Source: Escherichia coli
GTDB taxonomy: Bacteria; Pseudomonadota; Gammaproteobacteria; Enterobacterales; Enterobacteriaceae
Assembly (NCBI RefSeq): GCF_003991155.1
Contig: NZ_CP031293.1
Strand: one strand, 5' to 3'
Length of the DNA stretch: 64,000 nt
Below the pieces are notes generated by a model. The model had not been told where the DNA came from. It worked only from the letters and a program-made list of their open reading frames with translations, and ran no database searches. Shown piece by piece: positions 33,798-48,101 of this stretch. Made by a program: the position numbers and the translations under genes. The stretch's first letter is position 1. Every line of letters begins with the position of its first letter.

Positions 33798-35642
33798 GCA
33801 GTTTTACCTGGGGTGCTGGCAGAGGTGGTTATGGCAGCGCCAGCCGCGATAATATCCACAGCAACTATGATTCCGTTAATGAGCAGAGCGGTATTTTCGC
33901 AGGCCGGGGTTATTTTGATATCACTGTGGGGAATCACACTCAGCTCGATGGTGCGGTGATTGCTTCGACAGCACCTGCCGACAGGAACTCGCTGGACACC
34001 GGTACTCTGGGCTGGTCGGATATCCATAACCAGGCAGACTATAAAGCCAGCTATACCGGAATCAGTTTATCGGGTGGCTCAGGGATGTCAGCCAGCCAGA
34101 TGGTGGCCTCAAATGCAATAGCCGGTGCGGCGAACGCACTTACCGGTATGTCCGGCAGCAGTGGACATGCTGAAGGTACCACGTCATCCGCCATCAGCGG
34201 CGGAAATCTCATTATCCGTGATAAGGAGAGTCAGAAGCAGGATATTGCCGGGCTCAGCCGGGACCCGGAAAACGCCAACGGCAGCATTGCACCGATATTT
34301 GACAAGGAGAAAGAACAGAAGCGTCTGCAGGAAGCGCAGGTTATCAGCCAGATTAGCGGTCAGATGAGTAATATCGTAATGACGTATGGCGAAACTGAAG
34401 CGATGAAAGCAGCCTGGAAAGAGCATCCTGGCATGAGCGATGCACAGTTGCGGGAGACTCCGGAATACAGAGAGGTCATGAAAGGCTACGGTACGGGCAG
34501 TTCGCCGCAGATGGTGGTACAGGCCATCACGGGCGTGCTGGGCGGACTGAATGCAGGGAACCCGGGGCAGGTATTGGCGGGCGGTCTGAATCCGGCAGTG
34601 GCACAGCTTATAAAACAGTCCACCGGCGATAACCGGGAAGCAAACCTGATGGCTCACGCAGTCTGGGGTGCACTTGCCGCACAACTGGGCGGAAACAATG
34701 CGGCTTCCGGTGCTGCTGGGGCATTCAGTGGTGAACTTGCAGCCTGGTATATCATTGATAACTACTACGGTGGTCGTACCGATAACCTGAGTGAACAGGA
34801 ACGTCAGCAAATCAGCATGCTGGCCACCATTGCCTCTGGTATTGCGGGGGGACTTGCAGGCAACAGTACGGCGTCTGCCGGTACGGGTGCACAGGCAGGA
34901 ACTCGGCTGAAAACAATATGCTGAACGTGATAGCCACTGAAACAGCAGCTAATACGGCAGCAGCAATAGCTGGTGCTACAGGTAATGCCAGTAAGGATAC
35001 CGGGAATGATAATAGCTGGGATACCGGTGGTGTTACGCTGGCTACGGGAACAGTGTGCTGTACGTGATCCGAGTCGCGATGGCACCCGAGGACCGGGGCA
35101 TGTGCTGAATGGCGACAATACAGACGGAAACAAACAGCCGAATCTGGGCAAAGACGTAGCGAGCGCAACGGATAAGGATAAAGCTGAGCTTGGTGGTGCA
35201 GGTGCTGGAATACCGGGGGGGATGGGGACCGGATAATGAAGAAAAAGCCCGTCATCAGGAGGTTCAGCAACAACGATTTGATGAACTGAGTAAAATATAT
35301 GATAAAAGTCACCCGGCCGGAGAGTTAACGGTGGATGGGCAGACTATCAGGCAGAGTTCGGTAAGTAACCGTTATGGTACGACGAAAGTGTTTGAAAGCC
35401 AGACTTTGACGGATAAACAGATCCACAATTACGCACAGCAACTGGCAGGCGATACACCGCTGAAAGAGGTAAAATCGGGAATCTACACGTCTAAACTATC
35501 AGATGGTTCGGTAATAACACTTAGAAACATATCTACATCAGAAGGTCAGACAGGCGCTCGTTGGACTATAGATATTCGTAATAACCAAAAGCTTACTGAA
35601 CTGGGGAATAAATATTCACGTGTGGAGATTAAGTTCAAATGA
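33798..35642 (+). pseudogene. Orphan cdiA-CT module 1: displaced 3' fragment of a cdiA gene with frameshifts
   Basis: DNA and protein homology to the pre-toxin region of the main cdiA begins at about 33798 ([51 protein letters not shown]). The VENN-equivalent (AENN, 34906..34917) lies in a different frame from the upstream ORF, and the toxin part is split over at least three frames. Confidence 0.6.
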
Positions 35643-35995
35643 TTACTGAGTTAAGTGAAAGAGAATACAAGGAGTTGACAGACGCTGCAGAGGGACAGAC
35701 TCTTGATGCTATTTTGTGTTATTCAGTTCCTGATATTCACCCTGCAGAGTTTAGTTTTGCAGATAGAAGAGAAATCTTTTTTTGGGCATTAACCCGTCTT
35801 CTGAAAGAAGGGCGTATCAAACTCGCCAAGCACGGTAAGTTTTTGGAAGGAAGTGTTGACGAGCAGGTTGAGCGTTTTCGACAGGCATTTCCGAAAACAG
35901 AAGAAGAGATGGAAGACGGTATCTGGTTTTTTGATGAGAGTTGTCCGGGGGGGGCTGTTTGGGTGCTTGAAGATGGCTCTCTCGAATGGACCTGA
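35639..35995 (+). CDS. Putative orphan CdiI immunity protein (module 1)
   Basis: Intact 118-aa ORF whose ATG overlaps the stop of the orphan toxin frame (ATGA overlap), the arrangement typical of toxin/immunity pairs. Acidic small protein; no family recognised. Confidence 0.55.
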
Positions 35996-37112
35996 TAACC
36001 CCTTCACAGCGCAGGATGCGGCGCAGCGAGCGTATAACAACGATATGGCGGCCTCAGTTTTTGGTACCGGAGGGAACGATACAGGCTACAACGGCAGCGG
36101 TACAGGGACTGGCCGGCGGTAATCTGAGTGCAGCCCTGGCAGGTGGTGCAGCACCGTATCTGGCCGAAGTGGTGAAAACCATGACCACAGACCCGGTTAC
36201 CGGTGAGGTGAATAAGGCTGCAAATGTGGCTGCTCATGCCGTGGTGAATGCCGCACTGGCTGTGGCACAGGGAAATAACGCTCTTGCCGGTGCTGTAGGT
36301 GCAGCCACCGGCGAGGTGGTGGGAATGATAGCCACACAGATGTACGGTAAGCCGGTGAGTGAACTGAGCGAGACAGAGAAGCAGACGGTCTCGACACTGG
36401 CAACGGTTGCTGCTGGCCTGGCCGGTGGTCTGGTGGGCGACTCGGGGCTTCAGCGGTAGCCGGCGCACAGTCAGGTAAGACGACTGTTGAGAATAATTTA
36501 CTTGGCGGTAGTGAAGATGCTCAGGCTGCGTGGATACGCCAGCATGGTATCGACATGGCAACATGTGCAGAAAACCCTTCTGGTGCCGCCTGCCAGAAAG
36601 CAATGAATGAGAGGGATGCTGTAGGGCTGGCTCTGGCAACAGGTACAGTGGCACTACTCCCCGGTAGTGCTCAGGCTGTGTGGGGACTGGGAGCAAGTGC
36701 GAATGCTGGTATCAGTTATCTGGCTGATGGTACTGTAGATCCGACAAACGCAGCCATTGCAGGCTGGGTGAATGTGTTCAGCATGGGTAATGGCCTGGCG
36801 GGGACTGTGGGCTGGAATGCGGCAGGTGGTGCGCTGGGTAACTGGATTGACAACAAAGATCCTCTGTCTGGTGCAATTTCAAATGGTATCGGTTCTGCTG
36901 CCGGGTATGGTATCGGTAAAGGTATTACTTGGGGGACAGATAATATTACGAATGCTGTAGGAAAATGGGTGACAAATGGCTGGGATCCTAAGTACGATCC
37001 AACATGGATAAAATATGCTGAAGTAAATCGTAACGATATCATTCGAGAAGGCATGAAACCGAGCAATGTTCTTGGAACTGCTGGAGATATTGGCGGTTCT
37101 ATAGGATCCTAG
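35996..37112 (+). pseudogene. Orphan cdiA-CT module 2: cdiA 3' fragment with a frameshift; glycine-rich predicted membrane-active C-terminal domain; no immunity gene follows
   Basis: Homology to the main cdiA pre-toxin region ([28 protein letters not shown] ... [20 protein letters not shown]) runs up to a VENN motif (TTVENNLLGG) reached only after a frameshift near 36455. The C-terminal roughly 185 aa are Gly/Ala-rich with GxxxG-like spacing. Confidence 0.5.
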
Positions 37113-37162: not shown

Positions 37163-37348
37163 TTGGCTTTACGCTTACCGTTTTTTTACGCGCCAGAACA
37201 AGACTATGATAGCGTTGCCCTTATAGACGATCACATTATCGTCCACTCCGACTTTGCGCAACTACTGTAGAGTGGTGTACTCCGCGGCTTCTTTGAGGAT
37301 CTCAACTTCCATGTTTTTTTACCCAGCAAGGGCTGTAACTCTTTTATT
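37163..37348. repeat. About 180-bp segment, copy B of the direct repeat (copy A at 11205..11383)
   Basis: See copy A. Here it overlaps the 3' end of the minus-strand OrfA-like gene 37231..37644. Confidence 0.6.
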
Positions 37349-37644
37349 TTTATAGCGGCAGCCAGTTCTGAGGCAGGAACAACATCCTCTCCGGTAGTAA
37401 CAGCAGCGAGACTTCCTTCCAGGTATTGTTTTTTCCACTTAAACAACAGACTGGGCTGAATACCATGCAAATGCGCCACATGGGACACCCTCATGCCAGG
37501 CTCCGTTGTCTGCTGAATAATGGCAATTTTTTCCTGAGGAGTTTTACGTTTACGAAGCTCCTGCCCCAGCAAAGTTCCAGTTATCTCAAAATTAGAACTA
37601 GTGTTAGACATATATCCAAGCCTATCTCTTATTTTAAGATACAT
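37231..37644 (-). mobile_element. IS3/IS66-type helix-turn-helix transposase accessory gene (OrfA-like), probably remnant
   Basis: HTH_Tnp-type region ([44 protein letters not shown]). A run of seven A (GGTAAAAAAACATGG) near the 3' end resembles a -1 frameshift slippery site, but the -1 frame ([16 protein letters not shown]) stops after 16 codons, so no transposase catalytic ORF follows. Confidence 0.5.
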
Positions 37645-37671
37645 CCACTGTCTGGCGTTTCAAGGGGCGCT

Positions 37672-38037
37672 TCAAGTTTTTTCAGACAGTTGAACTAGTA
37701 TACCAATACATTCTTGTTCAGCATCAATGATACATGCTTGGTATGTCGGGAAAAAAACAGAGGTTTCTTTTACAATATATCCACAATCATAACATTGATA
37801 CCATTTCCAGCCTTTTTCCTGAATATAGGAAATATGTAGAAAAAGTGGCAAGACCGATTCGTCTGAGTATCCCTGTTTTTTAGCATTTTCAATGCATAAC
37901 AATTGCGAATTATATGCGTTATCTGATTGAGACAAAAGATATCCATTTTTCTCATGACAATACCATCTCCATTTATTGTCATCAGTCTTATAAAATTTCC
38001 ATATTAATCTCTGATTTCCAGATATCTTATAAATCAT
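37672..38037 (-). CDS. YegP/DUF1508-like small protein (tandem repeat fold), hypothetical function
   Basis: ATG at 38037; the ORF-track start at 38049 is a GTG. Two repeats of the pattern W(K/R)W...NG...(S/A)...Y (RLIWKFYKTDDNKWRWYCHEKNGYLLSQSDNAY and KGWKWYQCYDCGYIVKETSVFFPTY). AT-rich gene. Confidence 0.45.
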   Translation of the reverse strand: MIYKISGNQRLIWKFYKTDDNKWRWYCHEKNGYLLSQSDNAYNSQLLCIENAKKQGYSDESVLPLFLHISYIQEKGWKWYQCYDCGYIVKETSVFFPTYQACIIDAEQECIGILVQLSEKT

Positions 38038-38079
38038 AATATACTCCACTCCCCAAGGAGACGGCCCTGGGGAAGGTAA

Positions 38080-39444
38080 TCAGTGTTCTTTTATATATGC
38101 GGCTCTGTGACGTTCAAGTTCAATTGCACCACGATGTGATAACCAGCAGAAAATGATGCAACAAATAATACCGCAGCCAAGAAGATAAAATCCGCCATGC
38201 CAGCCAATATGATCGACCATAATACCAAACAGGCTGGTGCCCAGAGACGCACCGAAGATATAGCTCATAAAACCGCGTAAGCCTACTGCAGAACCAACAG
38301 CAAAGCTGGGAACGATCTCCATAGTCTGAACGGAAGCCAGAAATTGTGGAACGTAAATCAGGCAACCAACAATGGCAGCAAAAATTGTCACCATAAACAG
38401 CGATTCACTTTTCCAGTAGCCAATCAGGCAAATGAAAATCAGCGCCATACAAATCATCGCCAATGGCATACGACGCCCTTTAAACAGTTTGTCTGACAAC
38501 CAACCGGCAAGTAGCGTGGAAGGGATTGCGGCCCATTCAAAAAATAAAAACGCGACGCTCATTTGTTCTTTAGAAAAATGTTTCACCGTCAGCAGATAAA
38601 TAGGCAACCAGCTAATCATCCCGAAGCGTACCATGTATACAAATACGTCAACCAGTGAGACATACCAGGCATTTTTATTGCGTAATACATAAGTGCAGAA
38701 AATCTGAAAGGCACTCATGTTTTCTGGTGCTTTTACCGTCTGTCGGGTATTCAGGACGACTTTTTCTTCCGGCATCATCTCTTCCAGAGAGGGTAGACCT
38801 TCCTGACGTGGGGAACCTTTACCGAGAATCAGCACAATTACCGCAAAAACGATGGCCACGCAGGCCGGAACGATATAGCTCGCACTTTGCCAGTGCTCGC
38901 TGCCGAGTAGGGCAAAAGCGGCACCAACAATGGGTGCAACAATACCACCACCGACGTTATGAGAGATATTCCAGAAAGCACCAACCCGACCACGCTCCCG
39001 GCGAGGGAACCAGTTAGCAATAGTGATGAAAGAAGGACCAACGCCCATTCCCTGGAAAAGACCATTCAGAATAACCAATACCGCAAAAATCCAGAATGCG
39101 GTGCTGAATCCCAGGCCAACGTTAACGATGGCACATAACACCAGCCCACACGCCATAAAGACTTTCGGACTGGCTTTATCGGCAAGGCTACTCATCACTC
39201 CTTTGCTGATACCATAGGCGATAAGCATACAGCTACTCAGTACGCCAATTTGTGTGGCGCTGAGATCTAATTGCTCTTTAAGATAAGGCGTCGATAAGGT
39301 GAAATTATTACGCACGATATAGTATGCAAGATACCCCAGAAATACACTAAGTAACGCCTGCATACGATAGCGACGATATGTCACCTGAATTTTCTCCGCC
39401 GGAACACTATCCGCCGCTTGCCCCGTTTTAAATATTGATAACAT
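38080..39444 (-). CDS. pgtP: Phosphoglycerate transporter (organophosphate:phosphate antiporter, UhpT/GlpT family)
   Basis: 454-aa MFS of the UhpT/GlpT type, divergent from a pgtC-pgtB-pgtA-like three-gene regulatory operon; AGGTGA ribosome-binding site. Confidence 0.85.
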   Translation of the reverse strand: MLSIFKTGQAADSVPAEKIQVTYRRYRMQALLSVFLGYLAYYIVRNNFTLSTPYLKEQLDLSATQIGVLSSCMLIAYGISKGVMSSLADKASPKVFMACGLVLCAIVNVGLGFSTAFWIFAVLVILNGLFQGMGVGPSFITIANWFPRRERGRVGAFWNISHNVGGGIVAPIVGAAFALLGSEHWQSASYIVPACVAIVFAVIVLILGKGSPRQEGLPSLEEMMPEEKVVLNTRQTVKAPENMSAFQIFCTYVLRNKNAWYVSLVDVFVYMVRFGMISWLPIYLLTVKHFSKEQMSVAFLFFEWAAIPSTLLAGWLSDKLFKGRRMPLAMICMALIFICLIGYWKSESLFMVTIFAAIVGCLIYVPQFLASVQTMEIVPSFAVGSAVGLRGFMSYIFGASLGTSLFGIMVDHIGWHGGFYLLGCGIICCIIFCWLSHRGAIELERHRAAYIKEH

Positions 39445-39788
39445 GTCTTCACCTGTATTTTATATTGATATGAACACTTGGAGTATTCTGACAATGAGAG
39501 TTATATAATTGAGATGAAACATCAAACTGAAAAAATGTGTCACAATTGACACAAATTAATAAAATCAAAGCCTGTTTTTGACCCATTTTATTGATGCATA
39601 GACAGGGTAGATTTATGCTTTATCTGTTTTATTGTTAGCATGTGCGGATATTAACAAATCTCATGCTGATTATCGGGTAATCACTGATTAATATATTAAC
39701 GCTCTCTTTGAGCAGATGTGTTATCAGACGAAGTGTCTGAAACGGGTAATTTTTGTCTCAATGCGATTTTTGCGGTGTATTAATATTT

Positions 39789-41060
39789 ATGACCTGGATC
39801 ACAAACCGATTTTTTAGCTGGTGCGAAATCGGCATCAAAACCATGATTCTTTTACTGTTGTTGATGGATACCGGGGCCGTCAGGGCTCAACGAAATGAAC
39901 TGGTGATGGCCACCACATTCTCACCCGGAGCTACCGCGTGGATAATACAGCGCTGGCAAACAGAGCCTGAGTCGGTAATGATCCGTACGCTTAACCGCAC
40001 CAGTGCCTCACTGGAACAGTTGCTTGATACGGCCAACGTAGAAAACGTCGATCTGATCCTGACTTCATCACCAATGCTGCTCCAGCACCTTCAGGAGCAC
40101 CAGAAACTTGCCCCGTTTGATGATGCACCCGCAGAAAGCCAAAATCTGGTGCCGGAGTCGATCCGTGCAACCTCCGTTGCAGTAGCAATATCAGGTTTTG
40201 GTCTGCTCATTAATCGTCCGGCGCTTTCTGTAAAACACCTTCCTGCCCCTGCTGACTGGGACGATCTTGCTTTGCCGATCTATCAGGACGCTTTATTGAT
40301 GAGTAGTCCGTCGCGTTCAGATACTAACCATTTAATGGTTGAGTCATTACTACAGCAAAAAGGCTGGGTGAAAGGATGGGAAACGTTGCTGACAAGTGCA
40401 GGAAACCTGGTGACAATCTCCTCCCGCAGTTTTGGCGTAGCCGATAAAATAAAAAGCGGACTCGGCGTTGCCGGCCCCGTTATCGATAACTATGCTAATT
40501 TACTGTTAAATGACCCCCATCTCTCTTTTACCTATTTCCCCCGGTCTGCGGTATCTCCCACCTACGTTGCAATTCTCAAGAAAAGCCCACACGCCGATGC
40601 AGCCCGTCGCTTTATTCACTACCTGTTAAGTCCGAAAGGACAGCGTATTCTGGCCGATGCCAATACAGGAAAATATCCGGTGACACCACTTGCCGCAGAC
40701 AACCCGCGGGCAACGCAACAACAGCTCCTGATGAATCAACCCCCGCTGAATTATCACCTTATCCTGAAACGTCAGCGTCTGGTGCAGCGCTTGTTTGATA
40801 CGGCAATTAGCTTTCGGTTAGCACAGCTAAAAGATGCCTGGCGAGCGCTGCACAGTACCGAGGCACGCCTGAAGAAACCATTACCAGAAATACGTGCACT
40901 GTTAACACAAGTGCCCGTTGCAGCGGCCAGCAGTGAAGATCCCTTCTGGCTGGCACAGTTCGATAACAAAAGCTTTGCCGAGCAGCAAATGATGGAATGG
41001 CAACTCTGGTTTCTGAATAACCAGCGCCTGGCGATAAAAAAACTGGAAGAGCTGAAATGA
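39789..41060 (+). CDS. pgtC: PgtC-like periplasmic modulator of the phosphoglycerate transport regulatory system
   Basis: Position and size (first of three co-oriented genes; stop overlaps the pgtB start) match pgtC. Start is uncertain: the ORF-track start at 39753 is a TTG; ATG 39789 gives a plausible signal peptide, and ATG 39843 is the alternative. Confidence 0.65.
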   Translation: MTWITNRFFSWCEIGIKTMILLLLLMDTGAVRAQRNELVMATTFSPGATAWIIQRWQTEPESVMIRTLNRTSASLEQLLDTANVENVDLILTSSPMLLQHLQEHQKLAPFDDAPAESQNLVPESIRATSVAVAISGFGLLINRPALSVKHLPAPADWDDLALPIYQDALLMSSPSRSDTNHLMVESLLQQKGWVKGWETLLTSAGNLVTISSRSFGVADKIKSGLGVAGPVIDNYANLLLNDPHLSFTYFPRSAVSPTYVAILKKSPHADAARRFIHYLLSPKGQRILADANTGKYPVTPLAADNPRATQQQLLMNQPPLNYHLILKRQRLVQRLFDTAISFRLAQLKDAWRALHSTEARLKKPLPEIRALLTQVPVAAASSEDPFWLAQFDNKSFAEQQMMEWQLWFLNNQRLAIKKLEELK

Positions 41061-43066
41061 AAAACATAACGCTGTGGCAGCGTTTAAGACAGGTCAGTAT
41101 CAGTACCAGCTTACGTTGCGCATTTCTGATGGGGGCACTACTGACCCTGATTGTCAGTAGTGTCAGTCTGTATTCATGGCATGAACAAAGCTCACAAATT
41201 CGTTACTCGCTGGATGAGTATTTTCCCCGTATTCACTCTGCTTTCCTTATTGAAGGGAACCTGAATCTGGTGGTAGACCAGCTAAATGAATTTTTGCAGG
41301 CTCCCAACACCACGGTGCGATTGCAACTTCGTACCCAGATTATTCAGCATCTCGACACCATAGAACGGCTTAGTCGGGGGCTGTCATCCCGGGAACGCCA
41401 ACAACTGACGGTCATTTTGCAGGACAGTCGATCACTGTTATCCGAGTTGGATCGTGCGCTTTACAACATGTTTTTACTACGGGAAAAGGTGAGTGAGCTA
41501 TCAGCGAGGATTGACTGGTTACACGATGATTTTACTACCGAGCTTAATTCTTTAGTGCAGGATTTCACCTGGCAGCAGGGAACGCTGCTGGATCAAATCG
41601 CCTCCCGACAGGGCGATACGGCGCAATACCTGAAGCGATCTCGTGAAGTGCAAAATGAACAGCAGCAGGTTTATACCCTGGCACGCATTGAAAATCAGAT
41701 TGTTGACGATCTGCGTGACAGACTCAATGAACTCAAATCAGGACGTGATGACGACACACAGGTGGAAACTCATCTCCGTTATTTTGAAAATCTGAAAAAA
41801 ACGGCAGATGAAAATATACGTATGCTGGATGACTGGCCTGGCACCATTACCCTGAGGCAGACTATCGATGAATTGCTGGATATGGGAATCGTAAAAAACA
41901 AAATGCCGGATACGATGCGTGAATATGTCGCCGCCCAAAAAGCCTTAGAGGATGCCAGTCGCACCAGGGAAGCGACACTGGGTCTCTTCAGAACGTTACT
42001 GGAAGCGCAGCTTGGCAGTACTCATCAACAAATGCAGATGTTTAATCAACGAATGGAACAAATTGTTCGCGTTAGCGGTGGGCTGATCCTAGTGGCGACA
42101 GCACTGGCGTTACTGCTGGCATGGGTATTCAACCATTATTTTATCCGCTCACGGTTGGTGAAACGCTTTACCCTACTGAATCAGGCCGTTGTGCAAATTG
42201 GTCTGGGAGGCACGGAAACGACTATTCCTGTTTATGGGAATGATGAACTGGGGAGAATTGCAGGATTATTACGCCATACTCTCGGGCAGCTCAATGTGCA
42301 AAAACAGCAACTTGAACAAGAAATTACCGATCGAAAGGTGATAGAAGCCGATCTGCGTGCCGCCCAGGACGAACTGATTCAGACAGCGAAGTTGGCGGTA
42401 GTCGGGCAAACGATGACCACGCTGGCCCACGAGATCAATCAGCCGCTAAATGCGCTGTCGATGTATCTGTTTACAGCCCGCAGGGCCATTGAACAGACCC
42501 AGATAGAACAGGCCTGCATGATGCTTGGTAAAGCCGAAGGGGTGATTAGTCGCATTGACGCCATTATCCGTTCACTACGGCAGTTTACCCGGCGCGCCGA
42601 ACTGGAAATATCACTCCATGCCATTGATTTAGCAAAGATGTTCAGTGCGGCCTGGGAACTTCTGGCCATGCGTCATCGCCCTTTGCAAGCTACGCTTGTT
42701 CTGCCACAAGGTACAGCCACAGTTTCAGGCGATGAGGTCAGAACCCAGCAGGTACTGGTTAACGTACTGGCGAATGCGCTTGATGTTTGTGGGCAAGGCG
42801 CTGTCATTACCGTTAACTGGCAAATGCAGGGTAAAACGCTGAACGTATTCATTGGCGATAATGGCCCGGGCTGGCCTGAGGCATTGTTGCCTTCGTTATT
42901 GAAGCCGTTTACCACCAGTAAAGAAATAGGACTGGGTATTGGTCTTTCAATTTGTGTGTCGTTAATGGAGCAAATGAAAGGGGAATTACGGCTGGCATCA
43001 ACGATGACCAGGAATGCCTGTGTGGTACTGCAATTCAGACTAACGGATGTGGAAGATGCTAAGTAG
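41057..43066 (+). CDS. pgtB: Sensor histidine kinase of the phosphoglycerate transport system
   Basis: 669 aa with N-terminal membrane/periplasmic sensor region, H-box (TMTTLAHEINQPLNAL) and C-terminal ATPase domain; 4-bp start overlap with pgtC. Confidence 0.85.
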   Translation: MKNITLWQRLRQVSISTSLRCAFLMGALLTLIVSSVSLYSWHEQSSQIRYSLDEYFPRIHSAFLIEGNLNLVVDQLNEFLQAPNTTVRLQLRTQIIQHLDTIERLSRGLSSRERQQLTVILQDSRSLLSELDRALYNMFLLREKVSELSARIDWLHDDFTTELNSLVQDFTWQQGTLLDQIASRQGDTAQYLKRSREVQNEQQQVYTLARIENQIVDDLRDRLNELKSGRDDDTQVETHLRYFENLKKTADENIRMLDDWPGTITLRQTIDELLDMGIVKNKMPDTMREYVAAQKALEDASRTREATLGLFRTLLEAQLGSTHQQMQMFNQRMEQIVRVSGGLILVATALALLLAWVFNHYFIRSRLVKRFTLLNQAVVQIGLGGTETTIPVYGNDELGRIAGLLRHTLGQLNVQKQQLEQEITDRKVIEADLRAAQDELIQTAKLAVVGQTMTTLAHEINQPLNALSMYLFTARRAIEQTQIEQACMMLGKAEGVISRIDAIIRSLRQFTRRAELEISLHAIDLAKMFSAAWELLAMRHRPLQATLVLPQGTATVSGDEVRTQQVLVNVLANALDVCGQGAVITVNWQMQGKTLNVFIGDNGPGWPEALLPSLLKPFTTSKEIGLGIGLSICVSLMEQMKGELRLASTMTRNACVVLQFRLTDVEDAK

Positions 43067-44303
43067 TGAATATTCGATTCTGCTGATTGATGATGATGCA
43101 GATGTGCTGGACGCCTACACACAGTTACTTGAACAGTCAGGCTATCGGGTTTTTGCCTGTAACAATCCTTTTGAGGCGCAGGCGTGGATACAACCAGACT
43201 GGCCAGGCATTGTGCTAAGTGATGTGTGTATGCCTGGCTGCTCTGGTATCGATTTGATGATGTTATTCCACCAGGATGATCAACAGATCCCCATTCTGCT
43301 TATCACCGGGCACGGCGACGTGCCAATGGCAGTTGATGCGGTAAAAAAAGGCGCGTGGGATTTTTTGCAAAAACCGGTTGATCCCGGCAAATTGCTTTCT
43401 CTGGTTGAAGAGGCGCTACGCCAGCGTCAATCAATCATTGCGCGTCGTCAGTATTGCCAACAGACATTGCAGGTGGAGTTGATAGGGAGAAGTGAATGGA
43501 TAAATCAGTATCGGCGACGTTTACAGCAGTTGTCTGAGACAGATATTGCCGTCTGGCTCTACGGTGCCCCTGGCACAGGACGGATGACCGGTGCACGTTA
43601 TCTGCACCAATTTGGACGTAATGCACAAGGCGAATTTGTCTACCGCGAGCTGACACCAGACAATGCACCACAGCTTAATGATTTCATTGCGCTGGCTCAG
43701 GGGGGAACATTAGTGCTCAGCCATCCTGAACACCTGACGCGTGAACAGCAGTACCATCTGGTTCAGTTACAAAGCCAGGAACACAGACCTTTTCGCCTGA
43801 TTGGTATTGGAGACACCTCGCTGGTCGAGCTGGCCGCCAGCAACCATATCATCGCGGAGCTCTATTACTGCTTTGCAATGACACAAATCGCTTGCCTGCC
43901 ATTAACTCAACGCCCCGACGATATTGAACCACTGTTTCGCCACTACCTTTGTAAGGCATGTCAACGGCTTAACCATCCTGTTCCGGAAGTGGGAAAAGAG
44001 ATGCTCAAAGAGATGATGCGCCGCATGTGGCCAAATAATGTGCGAGAGCTGGCCAATGCAGCAGAACTGTTTACTGTAGGAATATTACCGCTGGCAGAAA
44101 CAGCAAACCCGTTGATGCACGTCGGAACCCCGGCACCGCTTGACAGGCGAGTGGAGGACGCTGAGCGACAGATAATCACAGAGGCGCTTAATATCCATCA
44201 GGGGCGTATCAATGAGGTTGCTGAATATTTACAAATCCCACGGAAAAAACTCTATCTCAGAATGAAAAAATACGGTCTTAGTAAGGAGCATTATAAAATT
44301 TAA
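43056..44303 (+). CDS. pgtA: NtrC-family (sigma-54-dependent) response regulator of the phosphoglycerate transport system
   Basis: Receiver domain (ILLIDDDADVLDAY ... VLSDVCMPGCSGIDL), AAA+ sigma-54 activator core (GAPGTGR) and C-terminal helix-turn-helix. ATG 43056 gives 415 aa, matching my recollection of Salmonella PgtA; the ORF-track start 43047 is also an ATG. Confidence 0.85.
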   Translation: MLSSEYSILLIDDDADVLDAYTQLLEQSGYRVFACNNPFEAQAWIQPDWPGIVLSDVCMPGCSGIDLMMLFHQDDQQIPILLITGHGDVPMAVDAVKKGAWDFLQKPVDPGKLLSLVEEALRQRQSIIARRQYCQQTLQVELIGRSEWINQYRRRLQQLSETDIAVWLYGAPGTGRMTGARYLHQFGRNAQGEFVYRELTPDNAPQLNDFIALAQGGTLVLSHPEHLTREQQYHLVQLQSQEHRPFRLIGIGDTSLVELAASNHIIAELYYCFAMTQIACLPLTQRPDDIEPLFRHYLCKACQRLNHPVPEVGKEMLKEMMRRMWPNNVRELANAAELFTVGILPLAETANPLMHVGTPAPLDRRVEDAERQIITEALNIHQGRINEVAEYLQIPRKKLYLRMKKYGLSKEHYKI

Positions 44304-47523: not shown

Positions 47524-48101
47524 ATATCAATACGGTTCTGACGAGCCGCTTACCCTTTAAAAAGGTATAGGTATATAACAGTAATATCTGATCGTAACGG
47601 ACGGACGCTGGAATTAACCGATGACCGCAGCACAGAGAGTAGGGGATGCGGACGGTCAAAGATCGCGGCGTTGGATTTTATAAATCTGTCTCCAGTAGTA
47701 GATGAACTGAATACAAAGTTGCCAGAGAGTGGTCTGTCAGGCAGGGAATCAGAAACTGGATATTATTGACTGGTACATTGTGTCGGGCTGTGTACGTTCT
47801 CCCCGGACAGACAGTCTCAGTTCGTAGAATCTATAAATTACTGCTACTGATGCTGCCGGGGAAAGGCGTAACGAAAAAACAGCCTCCGTTACCGGACAGC
47901 AAGGAGGCTGAATGGAGTTTACAGGATTTGCTTTTTTATAATGTCTGGCCATGCAGTAAAACCGGACAGGTTTTATTATCATGTGAGGTATTCTGACATA
48001 AAATGCTGGATTTTTATTTTGTGACGAATGCTGCAAAATTGAATCTGCACTCTGATGTAACTTTTATCTGTTTCAGTGAAGCATGCCCACAAATTGAGTT
48101 A

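Follow-up and report, generated by a model that had tools for sequence, protein, structure and literature searches.

We report that a small gene on a 64,000-nt stretch of Escherichia coli DNA (the window) is most plausibly the fifth and most distal gene of a mobile E. coli pgt module, in which pgtA-pgtB-pgtC diverge from pgtP and the small gene. As judged from sequence and modelled structure, its product belongs to the YegP/DUF1508 (UPF0339) superfamily, as a tandem member that has diverged strongly and is rich in Trp/Tyr and Cys. What is new is a divergent member of a known, function-less family in a new conserved genomic context. We consider the explanation as a whole likely, namely a real divergent YegP/DUF1508 protein encoded by a fifth pgt gene and putatively co-transcribed with pgtP.

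The coding sequence (ORF and RefSeq annotation) occupies positions 37672..38037 on the minus strand, stop codon included, and its product carries the RefSeq label WP_000639469.1, "hypothetical protein". Counted from the ATG the protein has 121 aa, as a first-pass annotation of this DNA had stated, and counted from an upstream GTG at 38049 it has 125 aa. The ATG is preferred because a Shine-Dalgarno GGAG, read from the sequence at 38044..38047 (minus strand), sits 6 nt upstream of it. The copy of the pgt module on this stretch (the window lineage) was compared with two further lineages for which DNA was at hand, L002 and L007; the Shine-Dalgarno is kept in L007, and in L002 a GGGAG is found further upstream instead. 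By arithmetic from composition, the chance of a 125-codon stop-free run at ~32% GC is ~5e-5 per start position. In the comparisons among window, L002 and L007, dN/dS of the small gene is 0.21, 0.29 and 0.13, and values of 0.13–0.29 indicate purifying selection. The small ORF is a genuine gene. Close homologs of its product are few; they fall into ~16 clusters with identity as low as 60%, and every cluster comes from E. coli or from metagenomes.

The AT-rich composition remarked on in the first-pass annotation is real, with a GC content of 0.317 (GC3 0.25) in the small gene vs 0.462 (GC3 0.46) in pgtP. GC3 of the small gene is 0.23–0.30 in all three lineages, at dS of up to ~1, and that of the adjoining pgtP is 0.41–0.46. 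Selection for AT-richness, H-NS binding and codon-limited expression are possibilities for this lasting bias of the E. coli gene.

Immediately upstream lies pgtP (38080..39444, minus strand), encoding the phosphoglycerate/PEP:phosphate antiporter and identified by the NCBIfam PgtP equivalog at 885.8 bits (cutoff 750). The regulatory genes pgtC (39843-41060), pgtB (41057-43066) and pgtA (43056-44303), all on the plus strand, are transcribed divergently from pgtP and together span 39843..44303. They were placed from the RefSeq annotation of an identical locus, supplemented by the ORFs and by Pfam SBP domains for pgtC. The longest pgtC ORF runs from a TTG at 39753 and would encode 435 aa, and the RefSeq product of 405 aa starts 90 nt downstream (39843); the extra N-terminal 30 codons look like an ORF-extension artefact.

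The small gene had been described as standing alone between IS debris and pgtP. The location is correct, with an IS3/IS2-type OrfA remnant (37231-37644, minus strand) beyond its stop codon and pgtP on the other side. However, the gene does not stand alone; it follows pgtP on the same strand after a 42-nt spacer and is invariably linked to it. Among 5,426 complete E. coli genomes, pgtP was found in 445 and the small gene or its proximal part in 445, such that every pgtP-positive genome (445/445) has at least domain 1 of the small gene. A query spanning the pgtP/small gene junction was covered over at least 80% of its length in 438 of the 445; E. coli ATCC 11775 / DSM 30083 is one strain with the intact gene. 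Two divergent homologs, P0008 (60% identity) and P0005 (74% identity), are also encoded directly after pgtP, and the far flank, which is IS debris in the window, consists of DUF465/AraC/PerC genes in one of these loci and a SPATE autotransporter in the other. Neighbourhoods of homologs are thus pgtP-adjacent across lineages with different far flanks, which argues against an orphan gene. Synonymous divergence of the small gene vs pgtP is 1.05 vs 1.05 between window and L002, and 0.47 vs 0.26 between window and L007, indicating that the two genes diverged together, and non-synonymous divergence is 4–11 times faster in the small gene. Nucleotide similarity among the three lineages ends at the small gene's stop codon, which therefore marks the module edge. 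The island matches the GI-pheV type carrying "pgtABCP" (PMC11537424), and the E. coli locus has been written "pgtP-pgtCBA" (bioRxiv 10.1101/2024.09.04.611154); neither of these two papers mentions a fifth gene of the locus.

Beyond the module edge, a scan detected a terminator-like hairpin with a T-run (GGCGTTTCAAGGGGCGCT then TCAAGTTTTT; 37654..37671, plus strand) that abuts the small gene's stop codon. In the alignment it is not conserved in L002 or L007, and it would stop antisense transcription reaching the small gene from the IS side. Orphan CDI toxin/immunity debris is present at 35190-37112 and comprises a 150-aa ORF, a DUF596 immunity-type protein (35639-35995) and a VENN-motif pre-toxin fragment with a 185-aa ORF (36555-37112). 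In the matching RefSeq genome, a complete cdiBAI locus and an IS100 insertion lie upstream of this debris.

Judged by the usual marks of an operon, pgtP and the small gene share a strand, a short spacer, conserved co-occurrence and co-divergence, with neither an intrinsic terminator nor a promoter between them, and the small gene is probably co-transcribed with pgtP. A simple consensus scan found no promoter-like site between pgtP and the ATG of the small gene. Straight after the pgtP stop codon lies a GC-rich intercistronic hairpin with no T-tract (38049..38076, minus strand; MFE -18.9 kcal/mol, z -2.1). Its stem is kept in L002 and L007 through compensatory changes (stems CCCCAGG/CCTTGGGG, CCCCGGAT/ATCCGGGG and CCCCAG/CTGGGG across the lineages), and the simplest reading of it is a putative intercistronic stabiliser or partial attenuator. 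In the window lineage the extended stem reaches into the Shine-Dalgarno and pairs its first two G. In L002, however, the Shine-Dalgarno lies outside the stem, and we therefore do not put forward occlusion of translation as a property that the hairpin has kept across lineages. An Rfam search of the whole window returned nothing at or near the small gene; the sole match at gathering level was AS-pc02 (RF02876, antisense RNA to pHK01_099) at 47773-47949 on the minus strand (53 bits, E 4e-10).

The divergent intergenic region between pgtP and pgtC contains a perfect 18-bp palindrome, TGTGTCAATTGTGACACA, followed by a T-run (39536-39553), which the scan scored as terminator-like on the minus strand. 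Its location upstream of pgtP suggests instead a candidate site for a regulator of the PgtA or CRP type. By eye, no sigma-54 type -24/-12 element was seen upstream of pgtP. We envisage that PgtB, PgtC and PgtA would sense external 2-/3-phosphoglycerate or PEP and bring about pgtP transcription, that read-through of the intercistronic hairpin would allow the small gene to be transcribed with pgtP, and that the hairpin might lower the ratio of distal to proximal expression.

Assignment of the protein to the YegP/DUF1508 family had to be made indirectly because no member of the small-gene family directly reaches the PF07411 (DUF1508, UPF0339, YegP-like) gathering threshold of 22 bits. The DUF1508 profile search that the first-pass annotation had named as a check came back empty: the window protein, six E. 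coli homologs and three Edwardsiella proteins were searched at E up to 10, and none of them matched PF07411. The NCBIfam model NF041908 (HVO_2922) gave a sub-threshold match to residues 15-45 (16.3 bits vs a cutoff of 90, E 0.0077), and neither the protein alone nor the family profile found a significant match among PDB sequences. Searches of PHROGs and PADLOC with the protein likewise returned no match.

Nonetheless, the tandem YegP-like fold guessed at the outset is upheld, and the fold assignment rests on the agreement of structure matches, transitive homology and hhalign. The best structural matches of the AlphaFold model are solved UPF0339/DUF1508 proteins, and the model shows the beta-beta-beta-alpha fold of 2K8E, 2K49, 6Q2Z and 3BID. 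The tandem architecture of YegP is found as well, with two modelled units and both repeats aligning to tandem DUF1508 proteins. An exhaustive phmmer search against 1.8 billion representatives returned 67 proteins at E <= 1e-3. Five of ten matches tested (P0022, P0036, P0037, P0031 and P0029; phmmer E 5e-8 to 2e-5) exceed the PF07411 gathering score of 22 bits, with scores of up to 52 bits. The motif W-x-F-Y...W-R-W...NG...Y...C..NA...GY is common to these proteins and to repeat 1 of the small gene product. In hhalign, the family alignment matched eight tandem DUF1508 proteins, a target set drawn from the query's own phmmer matches, at 97.8% probability (E 7.6e-13), and the 100 aligned columns take in both repeats. 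Present family models overlook this branch of YegP/DUF1508.

The strongest match outside E. coli (E 1e-19) is P0017 (L093 1681-2589, MAG GCA_028281405.1), a protein of 302 aa with four W-x-F/I-Y...W-R-C...D-C-L-E-N-A repeats. Its PF07411 score of 19.7 bits falls slightly below 22, which indicates that a Cys-containing branch of DUF1508 is poorly covered by PF07411.

The small gene product is soluble, without a signal peptide, and its AlphaFold (AF2) model (pLDDT 81) contains two beta-beta-beta-alpha units. Domain 1 spans residues 12-57 (37867..38004, minus strand; strands 12-17, 23-28 and 34-37 and helix 45-54 in the model), and domain 2, the more divergent, spans residues 66-111 (37705..37842, minus strand; strands 65-72, 76-83 and 88-91 and helix 99-110). 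The two halves match each other in BLASTP (E 6e-5) and are 22% identical across 36 residues. Two copies of a W-x-W...NG...Y repeat had been noted from the sequence, and this description holds in part. Repeat 1 reads W23-R-W25...N31-G32-Y33...Y42...C48 and repeat 2 reads W77-K-W79...C85-G86-Y87...C102; W-x-W and G-Y recur, but NG is confined to repeat 1. The G-Y pair, located at the beta-2/beta-3 turn, occurs in 7 of 170 aligned domains, including those of the E. coli small gene product. Domain 2 also bears the motif GYIV..S.FF....C..DA in common with the Edwardsiella protein described below. The protein contains 5 W, 11 Y and 4 F, its pI is near neutral, and four Cys (C27, C48, C85 and C102) are invariant in the small-gene family. 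Weak Pfam matches to zinc-ribbon/rubredoxin-like families (DUF7128, DUF7837, RUBY_RBDX, IBR) arise from C82-x-x-C85 in repeat 2. A zinc-knuckle reading of this pair was rejected, given that C82 is not invariant, P0001 having Y and P0007 having S at this position.

A large minority of carriers retain only half of this protein. In ~155 of the 445 pgt-positive complete genomes (~35%), only the proximal 165 nt of the small gene remain, domain 2 having been lost to IS66. In E. coli MS 85-1 (L011 4998-5177; window equivalent 37873-38037), for example, IS66 abuts the small gene and the remaining ORF encodes 55 aa, with an in-frame stop codon provided at the IS junction. This ORF stops one residue past helix 1 and thus corresponds exactly to domain 1. 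This single-domain allele of 55 aa goes without annotation in PGAP. Strains that carry the truncated allele either manage with one domain or can dispense with the small gene.

Outside E. coli, we scanned 80 pgtP loci with profiles of the small-gene family and of DUF1508 proteins. The only matches were in Edwardsiella anguillarum and E. piscicida, where a 63-aa single-domain ORF with its own GGGAGG lies 40 nt after pgtP; E. tarda has the same single-domain gene 37 nt after pgtP. The Edwardsiella gene has a host-like GC3 of 0.66 and a dN/dS of ~0.1, and its product carries the rare G-Y signature and matches the two E. coli repeats at E 2e-8 and 7e-8 (BLASTP; 42% identity over 31 residues with repeat 2). 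No DUF1508-like ORF was found near pgtP in the other 78 of the 80 loci, i.e., in all those outside Edwardsiella, which include Salmonella (S. enterica diarizonae), Citrobacter, Klebsiella, Serratia, Yersinia, Providencia and Morganella. The 3' ends of pgtP in 19 of these gene-less loci were inspected and show a hairpin, followed in several by a T-run. PgtP of Salmonella, Citrobacter and Klebsiella is 89–92% identical to that of E. coli, and such near-identity in genera without the small gene implies that PgtP does not need its product. Because most pgtP-bearing genera, of the Salmonella type, do without the gene and one domain is seemingly enough, we conclude that the small gene is accessory, not essential, to the pgt system. 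The contexts of its best non-E. coli relatives (P0019, P0017 and P0021) revealed no transporter link, those of P0017 and P0021 being limited to short MAG contigs. P0019, which is among the closest relatives outside E. coli and also bears the G-Y signature, is not beside pgtP; its neighbours are invasin, reverse-transcriptase and TacA/T genes, and complete E. coli genomes lack this locus.

YegP is described as stress-induced (bioRxiv 10.1101/2024.11.21.623966) and was still called uncharacterised in 2026 (PMC13373217), and the DUF1508 family is without established biochemical activity (PMC13373217; bioRxiv 10.1101/2024.11.21.623966). The best-supported role for the small gene product, from its sequence features and gene context, is that of an accessory, non-enzymatic binding protein putatively expressed with PgtP. 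Speculatively, such a binding module might target PgtP or deal with what follows from organophosphate influx. That it acts directly on PgtP, or on how imported organophosphates are handled, is a tentative proposal that we hold to be rather unlikely. By analogy with GlnK-AmtB, the protein could be a dedicated PgtP partner, a plug or adaptor that is co-induced, binds the transporter or a Pgt regulator and tunes uptake of 3-PG, 2-PG and PEP; we think this unlikely, and were it true it would be the first function for the widespread YegP/UPF0339 family.

The main rival to the transport-linked reading is that of a real YegP-like gene of stress type, with regulation of its own, which has kept historical company with pgtP without any tie to transport. 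We rate this as rather doubtful. An AT-rich composition and codon usage persistently unlike those of pgtP are odd if the two genes have long travelled together, yet they have stayed adjacent through dS ~1 in three lineages and, independently, throughout Edwardsiella. That the small gene is missing from most genera's pgt loci, the experimentally studied Salmonella type among them, and that the related P0019 sits in an unrelated context would fit a gene that merely travels along, as would the stress induction described for E. coli YegP (bioRxiv 10.1101/2024.11.21.623966). Separate regulation is harder to reconcile with the lack of a promoter-like site before the small gene and with a pgtP that here lacks a terminator T-tract, unlike in genera without the small gene. 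Loss of the distal half in ~35% of carriers, with pgtP retained, also favours a passive companion, but even the IS-truncated allele still amounts to one intact domain with an in-frame stop codon.

Two other readings were considered. It is highly improbable that the gene stands alone between IS debris and pgtP as the remains of a different cargo module, as had been suggested in the first-pass annotation. A GC content below that of the neighbours and an IS remnant just past the stop codon invite this reading, but it is contradicted by the 445/445 co-occurrence with pgtP and the junction conserved in 438, by a dS equal to that of pgtP, by the position of the gene after pgtP also where the far flank is DUF465/AraC/PerC or a SPATE autotransporter, and by the Edwardsiella counterpart. 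A module that binds ssDNA or ssRNA or acts as a sensor (PC4/Whirly-like, cf. the tandem DUF1508 of Menshen NsnA), perhaps in defence or stress and with an incidental location, is also quite improbable. A Whirly-like ssDNA-binding topology forming an intrinsic dimer has been proposed for tandem DUF1508 sensor domains (PMC12065111), yegP homologs occur downstream of capK/capS regulators of immune operons (PMC13373217), and the protein is very aromatic, all of which would suit such a role. We see no support for it in this protein, which has no PADLOC or PHROGs matches, no basic charge and no PC4/Whirly proteins among the top structural matches of its model.

With the small gene read as a fifth pgt gene, the description of this ExPEC/AIEC island locus as "pgtABCP" needs correcting to a module of five genes. 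Members of the DUF1508/YegP family are widespread among bacteria, archaea and phages, and they remain function-less with several structures solved. A branch fixed right after the gene for a well-understood inducible transporter, in two distant Enterobacterales lineages, offers a rare testable context. If the small gene is unrelated to transport, it is just another hypothetical YegP-like gene.

Among known systems, the tandem DUF1508/UPF0339 proteins E. coli K-12 YegP (PDB 2K8E) and Shewanella SO3888 (PDB 2K49) are only 9–13% identical to the small gene product in structural alignments. Unlike them, it falls below the PF07411 threshold, is far richer in Trp and Tyr and has four invariant Cys, and its gene is AT-rich, accessory, island-borne and fixed downstream of a transporter gene. 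To our knowledge, the YegP sequence contains no Cys. Solved tandem UPF0339 members form an intramolecular pseudo-dimer. Each modelled domain also superposes on the single-domain proteins Haloferax HVO_2922 (PDB 6Q2Z) and Neisseria NMB1088 (PDB 3BID) at 1.0–1.1 A over 45–49 residues. The window protein differs from these in being a fused tandem with clearly different halves (22% identity), whereas the 63-aa Edwardsiella protein and the 55-aa truncated E. coli allele share their single-domain format, a form reported to homodimerise (bioRxiv 10.1101/2024.11.21.623966).

The E. coli module shares with the Salmonella-type pgtABCP locus the complete set of PgtP, PgtC, PgtB and PgtA and its divergent layout, and the island PgtP is 91% identical to that of Salmonella diarizonae. 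Unlike in the E. coli island, pgtP of Salmonella, Citrobacter, Klebsiella and further genera is closed by a terminator, and no DUF1508 gene follows it. GlnK-AmtB provides a functional analogy, in which a small soluble protein shares an operon with the transporter it regulates and the linkage is near-universal. The small gene product has no sequence or fold relationship to that system, and its linkage to pgtP is confined to E. coli islands and Edwardsiella. The likeness lies in a soluble protein of ~110–120 aa whose gene is co-oriented beside that of a membrane transporter across taxa.
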